From the NCBI GenBank assembly GCA_963813715.1, contig CAWFAK010000009.1, positions 544,001 to 608,000 of the forward strand: a stretch of 64,000 nt of DNA. The letters run 5' to 3'. Shown here in pieces: positions 41,197 through 48,255 of this stretch. Source of the DNA: an uncultured Planctomycetaceae bacterium (GTDB taxonomy: Bacteria; Planctomycetota; Planctomycetia; Planctomycetales; Planctomycetaceae). The first letter of the stretch is position 1, and every line of letters starts with the position of its first letter. Below the pieces are notes generated by a model. That model saw nothing but the letters and a program-made list of their open reading frames with translations, had not been told where the DNA came from and ran no database searches. Made by a program: the position numbers and the translations under genes.

Positions 41197-43238
41197 ATGC
41201 GACGCTCATTGCTGCTGAGTCTTGCCGCGGAGTTGGGTTTCCTCTTTTGTTCCATCGTCTCTGGCGCGGAGCCAACGCCCGAGCAGGCGACGGTCTGTGG
41301 GATGATCGTCGACGGTAAAGGCATGGCCGTCGCAGGCGTCGAAGTGAAGGTGCTGCTTGATCGGTCGATCATTTCGGCGCGATCAGATGGGCTTGGCAAG
41401 TTCCAGGTCGGGGTCCCGAAAAATCAGGCCGCGCAACTGGCGATCCTCGCAACGGCATCGAGCGGCATCGGCGTGCTTCGACTGCACGGGGAGAGCGATG
41501 CTTCCCGAACCGAGAACCTTCGCGTTCAGCTCGTCGAATCCCGACCACTCGAGGTATCGGTCACAGATAAGAACAAGCGCCCGATCGCCGGAGCGCGGGT
41601 GGGCGCACTCGTCGACCAGGTCGAATTGCCGTTTTCCGAGACAAGCGCGCAGGGGAAAGCGTCGCTGCAACTGCCCGTTCGGCGCGGTACCTCGCGGTGT
41701 TTGCTCACAAGGCAGGGCGTGGACTGGATTATTGCATCCTCGAACTGGTTCGCCGCCACGCGAACGCTCGCGGCTGGCCGGACGACGGTCGGCTTTCCCT
41801 CTCGCTCAGCCCGCCTCGAAGAGTGACGATTCGCGCGAAAAGCGAGGAGGGCCGGCCTCTGCCTGGCATTGAACTGCGACCTGAGTTTCTGGTGAAGCCC
41901 GGTGAGCCAGCGAGCTTAGACCTCTCGTCGATGCCCGAAATATATCGGAGCGAGACAAACACTGAAGGAATCGCATCGTTTGATCTACCCGCATGGCTTA
42001 AGACTCGAGTCACGTTTTGGCCGCGTGACGGCAAGCCGGTTCCACGGCGGAACATTTGGAATCCGGCCAAGCAACCCGACGGGATTGTCGATGCAGTGAT
42101 CCCCCGACCGGTCGAGATTTCGGGACGCGTGGAATTCGCGGATGGCACTCCGGCGCCGGGCATCGCCATCAAAGTATCCGGGGCCGGGTATGACATTGAA
42201 TGGTTTCAAGGTCGCACCATTTCACGAGCGGACGGCCGCTTCGCGATCGACGTCTATCCCGACGAGATCTACATGCTTGGCGTCGACGACAAAAAATGGG
42301 GCGCTCGCGCTCTCGATGGCCTCGTCGTGCAGCGCGGCACGCCGATCAGAACCCTCAAATTCACGCTACAATCGGCCGCACGCGTTCACGGCCGGGTCGT
42401 TGAGGGAAAGGACCGCAAGCCGGTGGCGAACCAACGTCTCTCGCTGCAGCAAAACGGACGCGATCTCGGCAGCCTGCAGGGAGTCAAACTGCCAAATCCG
42501 GACGATCTCGGGTTTTATGTGGCACCCTCGCTATCGCTCGCGGTCGCGACGGATCGCGAGGGCCGTTACGAATTCCACGTCGGGCCCGGCCAGTACACCC
42601 TAACCGGACCGTCACAGGTGACGCCGAAGAATATCCGCATCTTGAACCAAGCCGAGGTGACCATCAATTTCGAGTCGTCGCGGCCGGAAAAGGGGCGGAT
42701 CATCGGGCAGGTTCTCGATGCCCAGTCGCGGCAGCCCGTCCCGCGCGCCACGATTCTCGGCATTTATCGCAGCTTGCAAGCAGACGAGGACCTGCAGCTC
42801 GTGGCGGACGACCGGGGGAAGGTCGTCGCGGAGCGGCAATTACTCCGAGTGGTCCTCTACGCGCGGAGTCCGGATGGAAAACTGGCAGGCATCGTCGAAC
42901 TGGGGCCGGACGATCGGGGCGAAATCATCCGAGTCGAGCCGACAGGCAATGCCGTGGGACAAATCATCAATCGTCAGACTCATGCGCCGCTCGCGCAGAT
43001 TCCGGTTACTTACAGCGTGCGTGTCGAACGCGAAGGTGACAGTGGGTGGCGTCCAAGCTTCGGCGGCGAAACGATGACCGACGAGAAAGGCAACTTCGAG
43101 ATCAAATCGCTGGTTGCACGTACAGAATATGACATCAAAGTTCCGTCAGGGAAATACACGGTGCAGCGCGTGGGCACCGTTGTCGTCGATTCCGCGAAAA
43201 CAAAGCAGCTTGGGCGGCTTCTGTTCCAGGGACCCTAG
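41197..43238 (+). CDS. Secreted protein with tandem carboxypeptidase-regulatory-like (transthyretin-fold) domains (frameshift at about 41690)
   Basis: Repeated G.V.D..G.P..GA.V ... TD..GRF units (e.g. ISGRVEFADGTPAPG...SRADGRFAI; TDREGRYEF; TDEKGNFEIKSL). Confidence 0.8.
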
Positions 43239-43271
43239 CCCTCGAACGGCTCTAAAATGCCGCGAACGCGC

Positions 43272-44715
43272 CTAGAGCGAAGTGCCCGAGCTTGCACCTC
43301 GGCGTGAGTTCTCTTCATCGGACGGCAGGGTGCTTTCCATCAGCGGCAGTTCGACCCGCAGGACAGTGCCCCGACCAATCTGGCTCTCCAGCCAAATTTC
43401 GCCGTCGTGAGCCGCCACGATCGACTTGGCGATCGCCAGGCCCAGTCCGGCTCCCTGGCGATCCCCGTTTGGCGAGGAATCAGCTCGGTAAAAGCGATTG
43501 AAGACGCCCGACAAATGTTCTGGCGAGATGCCGATTCCCGTGTCCTCGATCTCGACCCGCACGCGGGTGCCGGTTGGCCGCGTGCGGATTACGACCCGCC
43601 CGCCGCGGGGCGTATATTTGATTGCGTTATCGATCGCGTTGAAGAAGACCTGGCCCAGCCGCACATCGTCCCCGCGGACTGCACACGGCGTCAGCGGCTC
43701 GACCAAGAGCGTGAGACCGGATTCCTTGGCGGGCGCTTCCAATCGTTCGGCGACGTCTTTCAAGAGTGCGTCGAGCCGCACTTCTTCGCGCTCGATCTGA
43801 ACCATTCCGGCTTCCTGGCGGCTGAGAAACAGGAGCTGGTCGGCCAGCCGTGTCAGCCGGCTCGCCTCGTCGGCGGCCGCTTCGAGCGCCTGGCGATACT
43901 CCTCGGGAGATCGCGGCACGCGCAGCGCCACCTCGATGCCCGATCGCAGCACGGCCAACGGAGTCCGCAGCTCGTGGCGCAGCGTCGGCCGTGAAGCGGC
44001 GCATTTCGTCGATCGATTTCTCGAGTCGATCGAACAAGGAATTGATGGTTTGCGCCAGTCGGCCCAGCTCGTCGTCGGCGTTCACGACTTCCACACGTTG
44101 ACGCAGGTCGCTGGCGGTGATGTGTTTTGCAACTTCCACCATCCGATCGACGGGCGAGAGGACGCGGCGGGCCAGTAGATACCCGCCTAAGAGCGCCAGT
44201 CCGATCGCTACCGGCACAAACGCCGCCACGACGGTGGCCAGAATCGACATCTGCCGCTCGAACGGCTCCAGCGACATGATGGCCCGGGCAATGTAGGGAC
44301 CACCCGGCCCATCGGCCAGCGCAGTGGCAACGCGGCTCTCGCCCACTCCCGACACTTCGCGGGACTCAAATTGCTGATTGCCGGGTTCCGGCGACGTTCC
44401 CAGATCGAGCGGCGGATGCCCCTCCAGAGCCGCGCTGCGAAAAACGATTTCCCCCGCGGGTCGACGCACTTCGAATTGAAACTCGCCATGGACGGCAAAT
44501 CGCGGCGCGAGATGGGCGAGAATTCCCGCGGGCTCTTTCGGCAGTGCGAGCTCAGTTGTGACTTCCCGCAGCTCCTCGGCCAACTCGCTGTCGACGGCGG
44601 CCAACAACTGCCGCCGCATCACCAACAACAACAGCAGGCTGAAGGCGATGAGCGCGATCGCCAACGTCGCGCCGAACCACAGCGTGAACCGCCACCGAAT
44701 CGGCAACCGACTCAT
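43272..44715 (-). CDS. Sensor histidine kinase, CusS/CzcS-like (frameshift at about 43977, in the H box)
   Basis: PIRWRFTLWF, two TM helices, HAMP (DELGRLAQTIN), FTADAA/HELRTPL, NAIKYT, DTGIGI, GAGLGLAI. Confidence 0.9.
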
Positions 44716-45383
44716 TTCGCGCTTCCCAGCTGATACCCCTGGCCGCGCACCGTGTGCAGCAACGTGGGCAATCCGGGACTCTCGATCTTGCGGCGCAGCT
44801 GTGCGATATGAACCTCGATCACATTGGTCCACGTCGCCGTCGGTTCCTTCCAGACGTCGCGGGCGATCATCTCCCGCGTGACGACGGCGTGGGCGTTTTG
44901 CATCAGGTAGCTTAACAACTCGAATTGCCGATTGGAGAGTTCCAACAGACGCCCGTCGCGAAAGGCCACCCGGCGCAAGAGATCGACCTCCAGCCCTTCG
45001 ACGTAGAACACCGACTGCTCCAACGAGCGGCGGCGCAACAGGGCCCGCAGGCGTGCCAGCAGTTCGTTGAACGAGAACGGCTTGACCAGGTAATCGTCGG
45101 CTCCCGCGTCGAGCCCTTGCACACGGTCGTCGATCGAATCGCGGGCGGTGAGGATCAACACGGGCTGCCAGATTCCCTGTCCCCGAAACTGGCGCAAGAG
45201 ATCGATGCCGCTGCCATCGGGCAACATCAAGTCGAGCACGATCAGGTCGGGCTGCCGCGAGACGGCTTCGCAGGCCGCGGCGACCGACGCGGTCGGAATG
45301 ACTTCGTATCCAGCCTCGACCAGTCCGCGCTCGAGATTGCGCAAGAGAGGCCGCTCATCTTCGATGACAAGCACTCGAGTCAT
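44712..45383 (-). CDS. OmpR-family response regulator, CusR-like
   Basis: VLVIEDE, LDLMLPD, LILTARD, GADDYLVKPF, wHTH ending HTVRGQGY; ATGA overlap with the kinase. Confidence 0.95.
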   Translation of the reverse strand: MTRVLVIEDERPLLRNLERGLVEAGYEVIPTASVAAACEAVSRQPDLIVLDLMLPDGSGIDLLRQFRGQGIWQPVLILTARDSIDDRVQGLDAGADDYLVKPFSFNELLARLRALLRRRSLEQSVFYVEGLEVDLLRRVAFRDGRLLELSNRQFELLSYLMQNAHAVVTREMIARDVWKEPTATWTNVIEVHIAQLRRKIESPGLPTLLHTVRGQGYQLGSAK

Positions 45384-46191
45384 TGTGTCGACGCATTGAA
45401 TGCCGAGCACTCCGACTCTCGGCTGGCCTGACCAGTCCGAGATGCCGAGTTGGCTCCGATCCGATCGCACCCGCGCGTCACGGCGTGGGAAGCGATCGGC
45501 GCGAGAATCGCCCCCGGACCCGCTGATCGTTTGGGAGGGTCACCCATTGTCTGACGGCGCACCGCAACTTCGGTAGCAATTCCGGTTGGATAAAAATGAA
45601 TTCATAATCGAGCCCAGTTTCGTCTGGACGCGGGGGGTTTGGCGTCTGTCCTCGCTACAGACGGGGCGAACGCCGCGGCTTCGGCGGCCTCTTTCACGCC
45701 GAAACGCCGTTAGCATGAGACATCTGGGATCATTGATGCGAGATTGCCTTCCCGAAATTGTCTCACTCTGAACGACGGGAATCAGTGTTCGCACTAGTCG
45801 GCATCTCTCACGCTGACGGCCGAGACCATCTTTTGAACCGCGAACAGCTCCACCTGTGGTCAACATTTGAAAATTTTCAGCTGAAGCCCCGGATCTCAAC
45901 ACTTTGGGTCCCGAGTCGCCTCTCGCGTCCGTGTATGTTCTCCGTTTGATCGATTCTTACGCCCCTGACGACTGCCAGTGGAGGATGGGGCGCCCCGCTC
46001 GATCTCTCGGCGTCGGTCGGCAGGCGGCAAAGTTTCTCTGAGATACGTGCGCCGTTGGTCCGGTAAACCGCCCCGACGAATTTCGGACGATTGGCGTCGT
46101 TATCGAAGCGTGCCGCGGTTGCGTGATAGGTTTGCCTGTCGATCAGTGAGCCGTCGAGGAATAACGCAGGACGGTGAAACCGATCGATCAA

Positions 46192-46449
46192 CGGCCAAAG
46201 GCACCCATCACCGAGGAGGCCAGCCTTGAACGACCCACCGTGTTGGACTGGTTGAGGAACGATGTCGGCCGCGAGATCCCGCGTGCCGGGCGCCGAGGCC
46301 CGGCCCGCCTCTCCCGGGTTGACGAGCGTCGGGCGGCCCAGGTGATTTTACCTGTCCGCGGCGCGTCTCCGGCCGGCGCGTTCCTCAGCCCGTCAGACAA
46401 CGAGCCTGCCCCTGTTGAGCCTTTCTCCTGCTGGATGACCTTTGCACCG
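46192..46449 (+). ncRNA. Candidate rod-like structured ncRNA with central bubble and three-hairpin apex
   Basis: End-to-end pairing: CAAAGG 46196-201/CCTTTG 46439-44; GGTTGAGGAACG 46250-61/CGTTCCTCAGCC 46379-90; TGTCGGCCG 46263-71/CGGCCGGCG 46370-78; apical hairpins 46285-304, 46305-36, 46339-54. Wobble positions are G-U on plus. Confidence 0.6.
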
Positions 46450-46450
46450 C

Positions 46451-46498
46451 CGGCCCGCGGCCTTCCCATCGGGGGGGACCGCGGGCCGCGCTTCTTGG
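46451..46498. terminator. Terminator-like hairpin between the candidate ncRNA and the convergent ptsI
   Basis: Perfect 10-bp CGGCCCGCGG (46451-60)/CCGCGGGCCG (46479-88) with further inner pairing; weak CTTCTT tail on plus. Confidence 0.55.
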
Positions 46499-46551
46499 CG
46501 GATCGCGCCGAGCGCTGCCTTCCTCGGGTCAAACGGGGCCGCAGCCAGCGA

Positions 46552-48255
46552 TCAGGAGGAGATCGACAGGCCATGGGCTTTGAGCACGTCGCGGACCTCT
46601 CGGCCCGTCGAACAGCCGAGCACGGCCGGCCCGAGCGGTGCCACGTCGGCCAGCGACAGCCCGGCCAAGGCGGCGGCCAGGCGATTGACGTGCGAGCGTG
46701 AAACGCTGATCCGCCGCACGCCCAGCGCCAGCATCAGCGGCAGGAGCAAGGAATCGCCGGCCAGTTCGCCGCACATCGTCACCGGTTTGCCCCGGTTGAC
46801 AGCCGTCTCGACCAATCGATAGACGAGTCGCAGCACGACGGGCTGCAGCGCGTCGTGATAGCTTTCGACGTACTCGTCGTCGCGATCAGCGGCGAGCAGA
46901 TATTGCGTCAGATCGTTGAGTCCGACCGCCACCGAATCGACACGACCGATCATGTCGTCGATCAGGAGCGCGGCCGACGGCACTTCGATCATCGTGCCCA
47001 GGCGGAATGGTCGAGGCGATCCCGAGGCCACACCACAAATGCGGTCGAGTTCCCCTTCGATTCGCAGCAAGGTGTCGATCGTGTCGATCATCGGCAAGAG
47101 CACCGTGACCGGGCGCGACTTGCCGAGCCGGGCGAGCGCTCGCACCTGCGGCTCGAGAATATCGGGCCGCGACAACAACAGCCGCACGCCGCGGACGCCC
47201 AAGCTCGGATTGCGATTTACCGGGATGTCGGCGTAGGCGGGCGACTTCTCGGCACCGAAGTCGGCCAGGCGGATATTCAGTTCACCATCGCCGACGGCGT
47301 GGGCGACCCGCTCGTACGCCTGAAAGCTTTCGTCCTCCGTCGGCCAGGACATTCGATCCATATAGAGGAACTCGGTGCGGAACAGGCCGACGCCGGCCAG
47401 GCCAGCCGCGGTCGCGTTCTCCGCCTCGATCGGATCGCTGATATTGAGCAGGATGCTCACCGGCACGCCGTCACGCGTCGCTTGGGGGACCGCTCTCAAC
47501 CCGGCTTGCAGCGGCTGGTTGCGGGCCGCACGGATGGCGGCGACAGTGTCATCTTCGGCCTGGCCCGGGTCGACAATTACCACGCCGGCCCCCGCATCGA
47601 TGACCACGGGGGCTCCGTCGCGGATTCGGGCGGCGGCCCCTTCGATGCCGGTGATCATCGGAATTCCCAGCCCGCGGGCCAGGATGGCCGTGTGCGACTT
47701 GGCGCCGCAAGTTTCCGTCACGATGGCGACGACCCCCTGGTGGGCATAGCGCACGAGTTGGCTCGGCACCACGGATGAGGCCACGATCACATCGGCCTTG
47801 GGGGATTCGGCGGCGGCCGTCTCATCGAGGCAGTAAACCAGGCGCTGGCCGACGTCCATCACGTCGGCCGCCTTATCGCGTACAGAGGGGGCTTCACTGG
47901 CCTTGAGCGCGTTGTGAAACTCGATAGCGGCACGGGCCACGGCCGCCTCGGCCGCCTGCAAGTTGACGCGAATCTCTTCTTCAATCCGCCCGATCAGCTT
48001 GGGGTCGCTGATCATCGTGGCCTGCGCGGTGAAGATATCGGCATCGTGAGCGCGGCCGCGCTGGGCCACGAGCGCCCGGACACGAGCCAATTCGCGAGCG
48101 GCGCGGCTGCGGGCCGCCTCGAACCGCGCGATCTCCGCGTCGGGCTGAGTGATGCTCTCGTGCGCGAGCGCGTGCGCCAGCCAGCTCCCCACGTCGACAA
48201 CGTGGATCCGTCCCTCGGCGATACCGGCAGAAACGCATTTTCCGCGAAGGATCAT
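46552..48255 (-). CDS. ptsI: PEP-protein phosphotransferase (PTS Enzyme I family)
   Basis: SHTAILAR (phospho-His), GVGLFRTEFLY, NPSLGVRGVR, GTMIEVPSAA, NDLTQY, MCGELAGD. Confidence 0.92.
   Translation of the reverse strand: MILRGKCVSAGIAEGRIHVVDVGSWLAHALAHESITQPDAEIARFEAARSRAARELARVRALVAQRGRAHDADIFTAQATMISDPKLIGRIEEEIRVNLQAAEAAVARAAIEFHNALKASEAPSVRDKAADVMDVGQRLVYCLDETAAAESPKADVIVASSVVPSQLVRYAHQGVVAIVTETCGAKSHTAILARGLGIPMITGIEGAAARIRDGAPVVIDAGAGVVIVDPGQAEDDTVAAIRAARNQPLQAGLRAVPQATRDGVPVSILLNISDPIEAENATAAGLAGVGLFRTEFLYMDRMSWPTEDESFQAYERVAHAVGDGELNIRLADFGAEKSPAYADIPVNRNPSLGVRGVRLLLSRPDILEPQVRALARLGKSRPVTVLLPMIDTIDTLLRIEGELDRICGVASGSPRPFRLGTMIEVPSAALLIDDMIGRVDSVAVGLNDLTQYLLAADRDDEYVESYHDALQPVVLRLVYRLVETAVNRGKPVTMCGELAGDSLLLPLMLALGVRRISVSRSHVNRLAAALAGLSLADVAPLGPAVLGCSTGREVRDVLKAHGLSISS

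Follow-up and report, generated by a model that had tools for sequence, protein, structure and literature searches.

A candidate structured RNA gene, new at family level, beside ptsI in a subclade of one genus of soil planctomycetes

The window, that is, the whole stretch of DNA analysed here, comprises 64,000 nucleotides (nt) from an uncultured soil planctomycete, the genome of which (G000) is available as an assembly of 7.49 Mb and 82.6% completeness. The element in question lies at 46192-46498 on the plus strand, next to the sugar-signalling gene ptsI (46552-48255, minus strand), whose stop codon is 56 nt away from it. Along the window, a CarboxypepD_reg gene (plus), a histidine kinase gene (minus) and the gene of an OmpR-type regulator (minus) precede the element, and ptsI and secDF (both minus) follow it. 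An earlier account of this DNA, referred to below as the sequence-only reading, had taken the element for a rod-shaped non-coding RNA (ncRNA), either 6S/Ms1-like or of a new class. The best-supported explanation at present is a stand-alone structured RNA gene, new at family level, and it can be held with high confidence that an RNA gene is present on the plus strand.

The fold of the element is beyond chance for its composition. On the plus strand, 46192-46498 has a minimum free energy (MFE) of -168 kcal/mol, whereas dinucleotide shuffles give -141.9 +/- 5.6 (z -4.69) and none of 100 does as well; the minus strand has -163.8 kcal/mol (z -2.48), with one of 100 shuffles as good. The homologues were compared in an alignment, A4, which holds ten of the eleven distinct element sequences; L070 was left out because it is apparently identical to G000 within the element. 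The consensus energy of these ten is -139.3, against -95.8 +/- 5.2 for column shuffles (z -8.4). As many as 92 pairs make up the consensus, and 98.0% of its 918 cells are standard-paired. When the 3' partners are slid by 1-3 columns, pairing amounts to only 37-43%, and 500 shuffles all fall short of the observed value in four of the five pairing measures. Variable columns are found at 44 of the 184 paired positions versus 50 of the 98 unpaired ones, and helices P2-P6 are nearly free of insertions and deletions (indels). Most pairs are invariant across the homologues; compensatory double changes occur in six, four of which belong to the terminator. The pairing is thus preserved through substitutions, as would be looked for in a selected RNA fold under the sequence-only reading.

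The overall shape is predicted to be a rod, in which P1 and a large internal loop lead to a 28-pair helix and a four-way-junction head, with a terminator following. The parts, all of them on the plus strand, are as follows.

46140-46214, plus strand: variable 5' leader, species-specific, 24-36% identical to the sister species.
46214-46223, plus strand: 5' arm of P1, which includes the Shine-Dalgarno (SD)-like GGAGG at 46215-46219 and pairs with 46415-46426 in the consensus fold.
46224-46245, plus strand: 5' strand of the internal loop, about 22 nt, CCUUGWACGAYCCRCCGUGUUG (consensus fold, A4).
46226-46255, plus strand: candidate mini-frame of 6-13 codons, with its start and frame in 10 of 10 sequences.
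46246-46277, plus strand: 5' arm of P2, the 28-pair helix, pairing with 46365-46394.
46279-46283 with 46357-46361, plus strand: P3, five pairs that close the four-way junction (consensus fold).
46285-46304, plus strand: hairpin P4, in which pair 125:142 occurs as CG, UG and UA.
46305-46336, plus strand: hairpin P5/P5a (consensus fold).
46338-46355, plus strand: hairpin P6, in which pair 182:191 occurs as GU, GC and AU.
46365-46394, plus strand: 3' arm of P2 (consensus fold).
46395-46414, plus strand: 3' strand of the internal loop, about 20 nt, containing the conserved AGCCUGCC (consensus fold).
46415-46426, plus strand: 3' arm of P1, UUGAGCCUUUCU (consensus fold; comparison with the 16S rRNA tail).
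46439-46447, plus strand: CCUUUGCAC, the longest invariant unpaired run, directly 5' of the terminator (consensus fold).
46449-46496, plus strand: predicted intrinsic terminator, a G+C-rich stem of 18 pairs (46449-46467 with 46472-46491; 4 of the 18 compensatory) and then UUCUU, according to the folds.

All helices that the sequence-only reading had listed, namely the paired ends, the irregular and the long helix around the big internal loop, GAGA/UCUC, CCGCG/CGCGG, the three hairpins and the trailing hairpin, return in the MFE fold. Two of these helices need correction. The outermost helix is present in the MFE fold of the source genome, where the leader forms a hairpin and pairs 46192-46201 with about 46437-46452; its 5' arm is not conserved, and apart from the G000 clade and the L068 lineage no homologue forms the helix. 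What had been described as a 10-bp hairpin is actually the stem of 18 consensus pairs followed by UUCUU, a plus-strand terminator. The U tract of this terminator is short and interrupted, and it was not called by the simple terminator scan, which requires at least 5 T in 8.

The helices differ in how far they vary. Six of the ten pairs in P1 are invariant, three show a one-sided change that keeps them paired, and one is broken in some sequences. P2 has 18 invariant pairs among its 28, along with five that change on one side, one that changes in a compensatory way and four that have some unpaired cells. The 5' strand of the internal loop accepts insertions of 11, 12 and 39 nt at a single spot near its 3' end. 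In G002 this hot spot, at about 46242/46243 (columns 27-81 of A4), carries CGTGTTGGACTG duplicated in tandem (12 nt); L071 has that duplication minus one base, and G007 has a 39-nt insertion that resembles a diverged duplicate of the beginning of P2. On the 3' strand, a small hairpin can be formed in most species (helix 9, 90% paired). The run CCUUUGCAC, a candidate partner-binding site, is masked by the variable leader in the individual folds of G000 and L068.

The direction of the RNA can be read from its wobble pairs. G-U is found in at least one sequence at 24 of the 92 pairs, and since the 918 cells hold 97 G-U against nine A-C, the RNA is assigned to the plus strand. The sequence-only reading had noticed this same pattern, G-U on plus and A-C on minus, in the single sequence. 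On the minus strand, pairing would drop from 98.0% to 88.5%; the structure conservation index is 0.89 on plus versus 0.80 on minus; and UUCUU(U) follows the hairpin on plus, with no U run after it on minus. The 171-nt core covariance model R1, which was used for the homologue searches, scores 164-195 bits on the plus strand versus 20-45 on the minus. These patterns indicate an RNA that is convergent with ptsI and is not its 3' untranslated region (UTR). The proposal that the element is the 3' UTR or terminator region of ptsI on the minus strand could call upon the short distance to the ptsI stop and upon the low folding energy of that strand. It is contradicted by the 97 cells that turn into A-C, by the lower conservation index and by the missing U run; moreover, the spacer is only 28-38% identical, a 3-kb gene intervenes in G006, and ptsI orthologues are found in G001, G005, G008 and G011 where the element is not. 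Its probability is, therefore, put very low.

The limits of the conserved unit are sharp. Conservation begins abruptly at 46215 (GGAGGCCAGCCTTG) and stops at 46496, after the hairpin and GCGCTTCTT. When G000 was compared with the sister species G003, G009, G010 and G007, the identity of the core was 86, 85, 85 and 73%, respectively, the last value reflecting the 39-nt insertion, and that of the terminator was 90, 92, 75 and 85%. The 68 nt directly upstream of the core are 24-36% identical, the 55-nt spacer up to the ptsI stop 28-38%, and the third codon positions of ptsI 53-62%. Since the core and the terminator are far more alike than the flanks and these third positions, purifying selection on the element, strong over 46215-46496, is well above that on the adjacent silent sites.

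This selection does not act on a long protein. Indels of 1 nt separate the species, no reading frame is open across all ten homologues, and Pfam gives no match for the long open reading frames (ORFs) overlapping the element in G000. A type I toxin is not indicated, since no frame longer than the mini-frame is kept in the ten sequences and the mini-frame is not hydrophobic. It might also be imagined that the element is mobile or repeat DNA, such as a palindrome of the miniature inverted-repeat transposable element (MITE) or repetitive extragenic palindrome (REP) type, or else a decayed protein gene. The inverted-repeat architecture and the overlap of two long ORFs in G000 would suit this idea. 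It is at odds with the single copy per genome at the same locus, with the frames broken between species and devoid of Pfam matches, and with a conservation far above that of the neutral flanks. In the 7.49-Mb assembly the next best match has 65 nt and an E value of 0.044, and no match to the element was found in the phage or plasmid collections. Many dispersed copies would have pointed to a MITE in the sequence-only reading; a single-copy element is found instead, and repeat or decayed-gene origin is hardly credible. The data on strand, copy number, frame and conservation thus lead us to reject the element as a minus-strand UTR, as a repeat or as a coding sequence.

In its distribution, the element is restricted to one subclade within a single genus of soil planctomycetes. 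R1 gives one strong plus-strand hit (E 1e-33 or better) in seven of the twelve species genomes of the genus (G000, G002, G003, G006, G007, G009 and G010), each at one locus, and the element is missing from the other five. R1 had no hit in 148 genomes of 91 other genera of the family (strict filters, 18 candidates scored per genome) or in 150 more genomes drawn from across the class. When 185,579 species genomes were scanned with exact patterns, the element came up only in the same metagenome-assembled genomes (MAGs); 14 of the 21 hits of the genome-contig pattern scan were in unrelated taxa and were discarded. The metagenome scan added six further element contigs. Two of them do not differ from G010 and G007 in the 431 nt that were extracted, L070 appeared the same as G000 inside the element, and L067, L068 and L071 are new variants. 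The remaining three of the nine metagenome hits (L065, L066 and L072) are due to chance, with a best R1 score of 11.6 bits. In the G006 MAG, the element occurs at two contig ends, where contig C25 stops 36 nt inside it and C225 begins about 105 nt upstream; this is probably an assembly fork at strain variation and not two copies.

The sequence-only reading had suggested a search downstream of ptsI orthologues. The element does stand near ptsI in the sister species, and the association fails in G001, G005, G008 and G011, which have ptsI and lack the element. Downstream of these four genes no diverged element was detected, R1 scoring at most 12.8 bits and blastn giving an E value no better than 0.47. 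A TPR gene that runs convergently to ptsI in G005 has its end about 100 nt away from the stop codon of ptsI. The ptsI next to the element is itself a paralogue specific to this genus, with an identity of 73-99% inside it and of 29-36% elsewhere. Two more PtsI-like loci are present in G000, on contig C5. The ptsI genes of G003 (C1:1961675-1963361) and G011 (C4:383771-385458) match in two pieces each, which points to a frameshift, either real or an assembly error.

Throughout the window, all Rfam families stay below their gathering scores. At E values up to 10, only the ybhL leader (minus strand, E 1.5) and Cis52 (inside ptsI, E 3.8) were listed in 45400-47000; both are at chance level, and neither is 6S or Ms1, the families against which the sequence-only reading had wanted the element scanned. 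That reading had also found no signature of the signal recognition particle (SRP) RNA, RNase P RNA or transfer-messenger RNA (tmRNA) in it. RNase P RNA (C5, 281 bits), tmRNA (C17, 167.9 bits) and an SRP-like match (C8, 39.5 bits, just below the cut-off of 40) are placed on other contigs of the genome. ARAGORN finds nothing that would make the four-way head tRNA-like. The canonical 6S RNA of the genome is located at G000:C16:57869-58062 (47.6 bits; cut-off 46.4). It is a classic rod of 194 nt with a central bubble (L028:1501-1694), its G+C content is far below that of the element, and the two folds show no resemblance by eye.

The element and 6S RNA (RF00013) are nonetheless alike in being rods of a few hundred nucleotides with paired ends and a large conserved internal loop. 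They differ in that the element has no covariance-model match, is restricted to seven of the twelve species and coexists with a canonical 6S RNA elsewhere. Its closing stem P1 and bubble end in a 28-pair helix with a four-way junction, and its terminator is a separate hairpin outside the rod. Ms1 RNA of mycobacteria is an actinobacterial RNA that binds core polymerase; it, too, has about 300 nt, is a rod with a bubble and extra hairpins, and belongs to a single lineage. No family matches the element beyond the two chance-level hits, Ms1 not being confirmed among the families scanned.

It has been considered, from this likeness, that the element could be a decoy of the 6S/Ms1 type for RNA polymerase. 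By a loop that imitates an open promoter, the RNA would capture the polymerase and be a second, lineage-specific decoy beside the canonical 6S. Some bacteria do carry two 6S-type RNAs. The shape is suitable, with paired ends and a conserved loop between long helices in about 280 nt, and the loop strands are among the best-conserved unpaired parts. The idea is weakened by the lack of any match to 6S or Ms1, even with E values as high as 10 allowed, by the presence of the genuine 6S RNA and by a tip that is a four-way junction rather than a hairpin. Furthermore, the 5' loop strand tolerates insertions of 11-39 nt, and five of the twelve species do without the element. We consider a polymerase decoy quite unlikely. 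Of the two options of the sequence-only reading, the new class stands, as the element is conserved, structured, non-coding, on the plus strand and without an Rfam family; the 6S/Ms1 option is reduced to a likeness of shape.

Some information on expression comes from public RNA libraries. Six runs labelled as metatranscriptomes, from six studies, contain part of an 801-nt query, and four were examined, all as contigs. In run X18, a 298-nt contig spans 46148-46445 at a depth of 8.9 and is the only long contig on 45500-47300; apart from two further 61-nt contigs at 46216-46276, which derive from a variant, no other pieces were found there. Run X14 has a 564-nt contig at 46051-46613. In run X3, the entire stretch is contained in one 2.3-kb contig, and run X17 has scattered pieces, flanks included, among them a contig at 45500-45788. 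The uncovered parts of 45500-47300 in X14 and X18 are not read as silence. Lack of transcription had been named as a ground for abandoning the RNA altogether; the element is covered by RNA-library contigs, which carry neither strand nor ends, and they are a hint of transcription, not a proof. A transcript beginning shortly after a -10-like motif and reaching into the terminator hairpin would agree with the two ends of the contig of X18.

Two features of the upstream DNA bear on this start.

46124-46132, plus strand: candidate extended -10 promoter TGATAGGTT (TGnTAnnnT), the pattern being present in 10 of 10 sequences.
46026-46063, plus strand: semi-conserved non-coding motifs GGCAAAGTTTC (46026-46036) and GTGCGCCGTTGGTCCGG (46047-46063), from the alignment of 9-10 homologues.

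Within the diverged upstream DNA, CGTGATAGGTTTG (46121-46134) stands alone as a well-conserved block; it is 63-81% identical, compared with 24-36% alongside. From the extended -10 motif, transcription is predicted to start at about 46138-46142. The motifs at 46026-46063 are possibly regulator sites. In the genome, no other copy of the promoter-like and upstream motifs stands out. The upstream region was also considered as part of the RNA and as a small gene; both ideas were dropped, as no fold is conserved there (alifold -8.4, with one column shuffle reaching -9.6) and no frame stays open throughout the homologues. The roughly 550 nt between the regulator gene and the upstream motifs (45471-46025) hold no Pfam-recognised ORF.

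The gene neighbourhood is variable. In G003, the order is kinase, regulator, CarboxypepD_reg gene, element and ptsI. In G009 and L068, the regulator gene (minus) is followed by the element (plus). In G006, a co-oriented gene of 3 kb for a 979-aa CarboxypepD_reg/thioredoxin-like protein separates the element (plus) from ptsI. The order of the CarboxypepD_reg gene, the kinase/regulator pair and the element is thus shuffled among sister species (41697-46214; L109, L110, L108 and L068). The element is regarded as an independent unit because its own upstream motif stays with it through these rearrangements. A histidine kinase and an OmpR-type regulator are encoded beside it in six of the seven genomes, the kinase not being found in G010 with the query used, and the element and the regulator gene are divergently oriented in G000, G009 and L068.

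A further set of features might link the element with translation. The CCUUUCU in the 3' arm of P1 equals the last 7 nt of the 16S rRNA tail of the same genome, as read on contig C17. Because GGAGG pairs with UUGAGCCUUUCU, which includes this copy, P1 can be described as an internal mimic of the SD:anti-SD duplex. The mini-frame starts with UUG (AUG in L068), 6 nt after GGAGG, and reads M-N/Y-D-P-P-C in all ten sequences. Indels of 12, 11, 39 and 1 nt change its tail in G002, L071, G007 and L067, respectively. The sole two variable sites of ACGAYCCRCCGUGU are synonymous third positions; they do not decide whether the frame is coding because they are also the loop positions of a small ACG/CGU hairpin. 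The use of SD sequences in the genome is modest, with a bump at 5-9 nt.

It is possible to see in these features a leader-type RNA that senses the ribosome. P1 and P2 would be opened when the mini-frame is translated or when ribosomes stall at D-P-P, and this would alter the stability of the RNA, the availability of its tail or read-through of the terminator, the read-through going antisense into ptsI or, in G006, into the co-oriented gene. D-P-P is a strong EF-P-dependent stalling motif, and GGAGG, spacer and start codon are all kept, even where UUG is replaced by AUG. The synonymous nature of the two variable sites, the copy of the 16S tail in P1, some use of SD sequences in the genome and the 979-aa gene lying downstream in the same direction in G006 are in line with such a role. 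The frame has only 6-13 codons, its tail is changed by indels in four of the ten sequences, the synonymous sites are explained equally well by the small hairpin, and no gene follows in six of the seven genomes. From these sequence features, the ribosome-sensing leader is judged unlikely. SgrS/SgrT, RNAIII/hld and the cat/erm leaders offer a parallel, as the element likewise has an SD, a start codon and a small frame, with its SD masked by an internal anti-SD. It differs from them in the shortness and unstable tail of its frame and, in most genomes, in the absence of a following gene.

The explanation that we favour, with modest confidence, is that of an independent plus-strand gene for a stable folded ncRNA, which is likely a riboregulator acting in trans and is possibly under the control of an OmpR-type two-component system. 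Transcription would start at the extended -10 motif (46124-46132) and end at the terminator (46449-46496), giving an RNA of about 355 nt with 46215-46496 as its conserved part. In this RNA, GGAGG would be locked in P1 against the copy of the 16S anti-SD tail, and the rigid scaffold would offer two single-stranded parts, the CU-rich 3' tail and the internal loop, for binding by a partner. Either the SD regions of mRNAs or a protein may be this partner, and the adjacent two-component system possibly exerts the control. Taken separately, regulation in trans is about an even call, and base-pairing through the CU-rich parts is a tentative suggestion. The promoter, the exact ends, the trans action and the partner are all matters that we infer.

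Regulators encoded beside their small RNA (sRNA) are a known theme, of which OxyS/oxyR, GcvB/gcvA and SgrS/sgrR are examples. The element is similar to these in its promoter-like motif, intrinsic terminator and invariant unpaired stretch before the terminator, as well as in the divergent regulator gene of several genomes. It differs from OxyS, GcvB and SgrS in being 2-3 times larger and in its far more elaborate conserved scaffold. Weinberg et al. (2010) reportedly described orphan large structured bacterial ncRNAs, such as raiA, OLE, ROOL and GOLLD, by comparative genomics. With these the element shares a complex conserved fold, the lack of coding capacity and the lack of an assigned function; it is smaller than they are, its distribution is far narrower, and it has no match at an Rfam gathering score.

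Several observations weigh against a trans-acting riboregulator of this kind. The RNA-library contigs give no strand, ends or level, and in X3 and X17 the flanks are present at similar depth, as with DNA carry-over. Covariation, though real, is thin, with just two of the six compensatory pairs outside the terminator, and the shuffle controls overstate the case because the homologues are close kin. As the simple scan finds no -35/-10 pair, the promoter is just a motif and is put forward as such. The best kinase matches in element-less species have a similarity of 54-56%, against 58-62% for the adjacent copies; with paralogues that come so near to the adjacent copies, it is not established that the kinase and the element occur together. 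Complementarity at the ptsI start is ordinary by a crude method (-78 versus -81 +/- 10), and no target or protein partner was found. An elaborate scaffold of 230 nt usually exceeds the need of base-pairing sRNAs.

A bolder view can be taken, to which we assign quite a small chance. The element may be an undescribed translation-linked sensor or decoy, in which the SD:anti-SD duplex of P1 and the D-P-P mini-frame gate the CU-rich tail, or else a second lineage-specific RNA-polymerase decoy with a junction head. If the former is true, the status of the ribosome or of EF-P and proline would decide whether the rod opens, and the RNA would be a riboregulator that is gated by the ribosome and stands on its own, no gene lying downstream of it.

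To our knowledge, almost no regulatory RNAs have been described in Planctomycetes. A search of the literature brought up general motif surveys and nothing on small or structured RNAs specific to the group. The reach of the finding is limited, because, as far as the evidence goes now, the element adds one to the orphan structured RNAs of narrow host range. It is, nevertheless, a clean candidate, being a single-copy, strand-specific island under strong purifying selection that is represented in contigs of soil RNA libraries and is unusually elaborate for a small RNA. If its partner were identified, the element would provide a first handle on RNA-based regulation in these widespread uncultured soil planctomycetes, and it would also illustrate the rise of an intricate RNA fold inside one genus.

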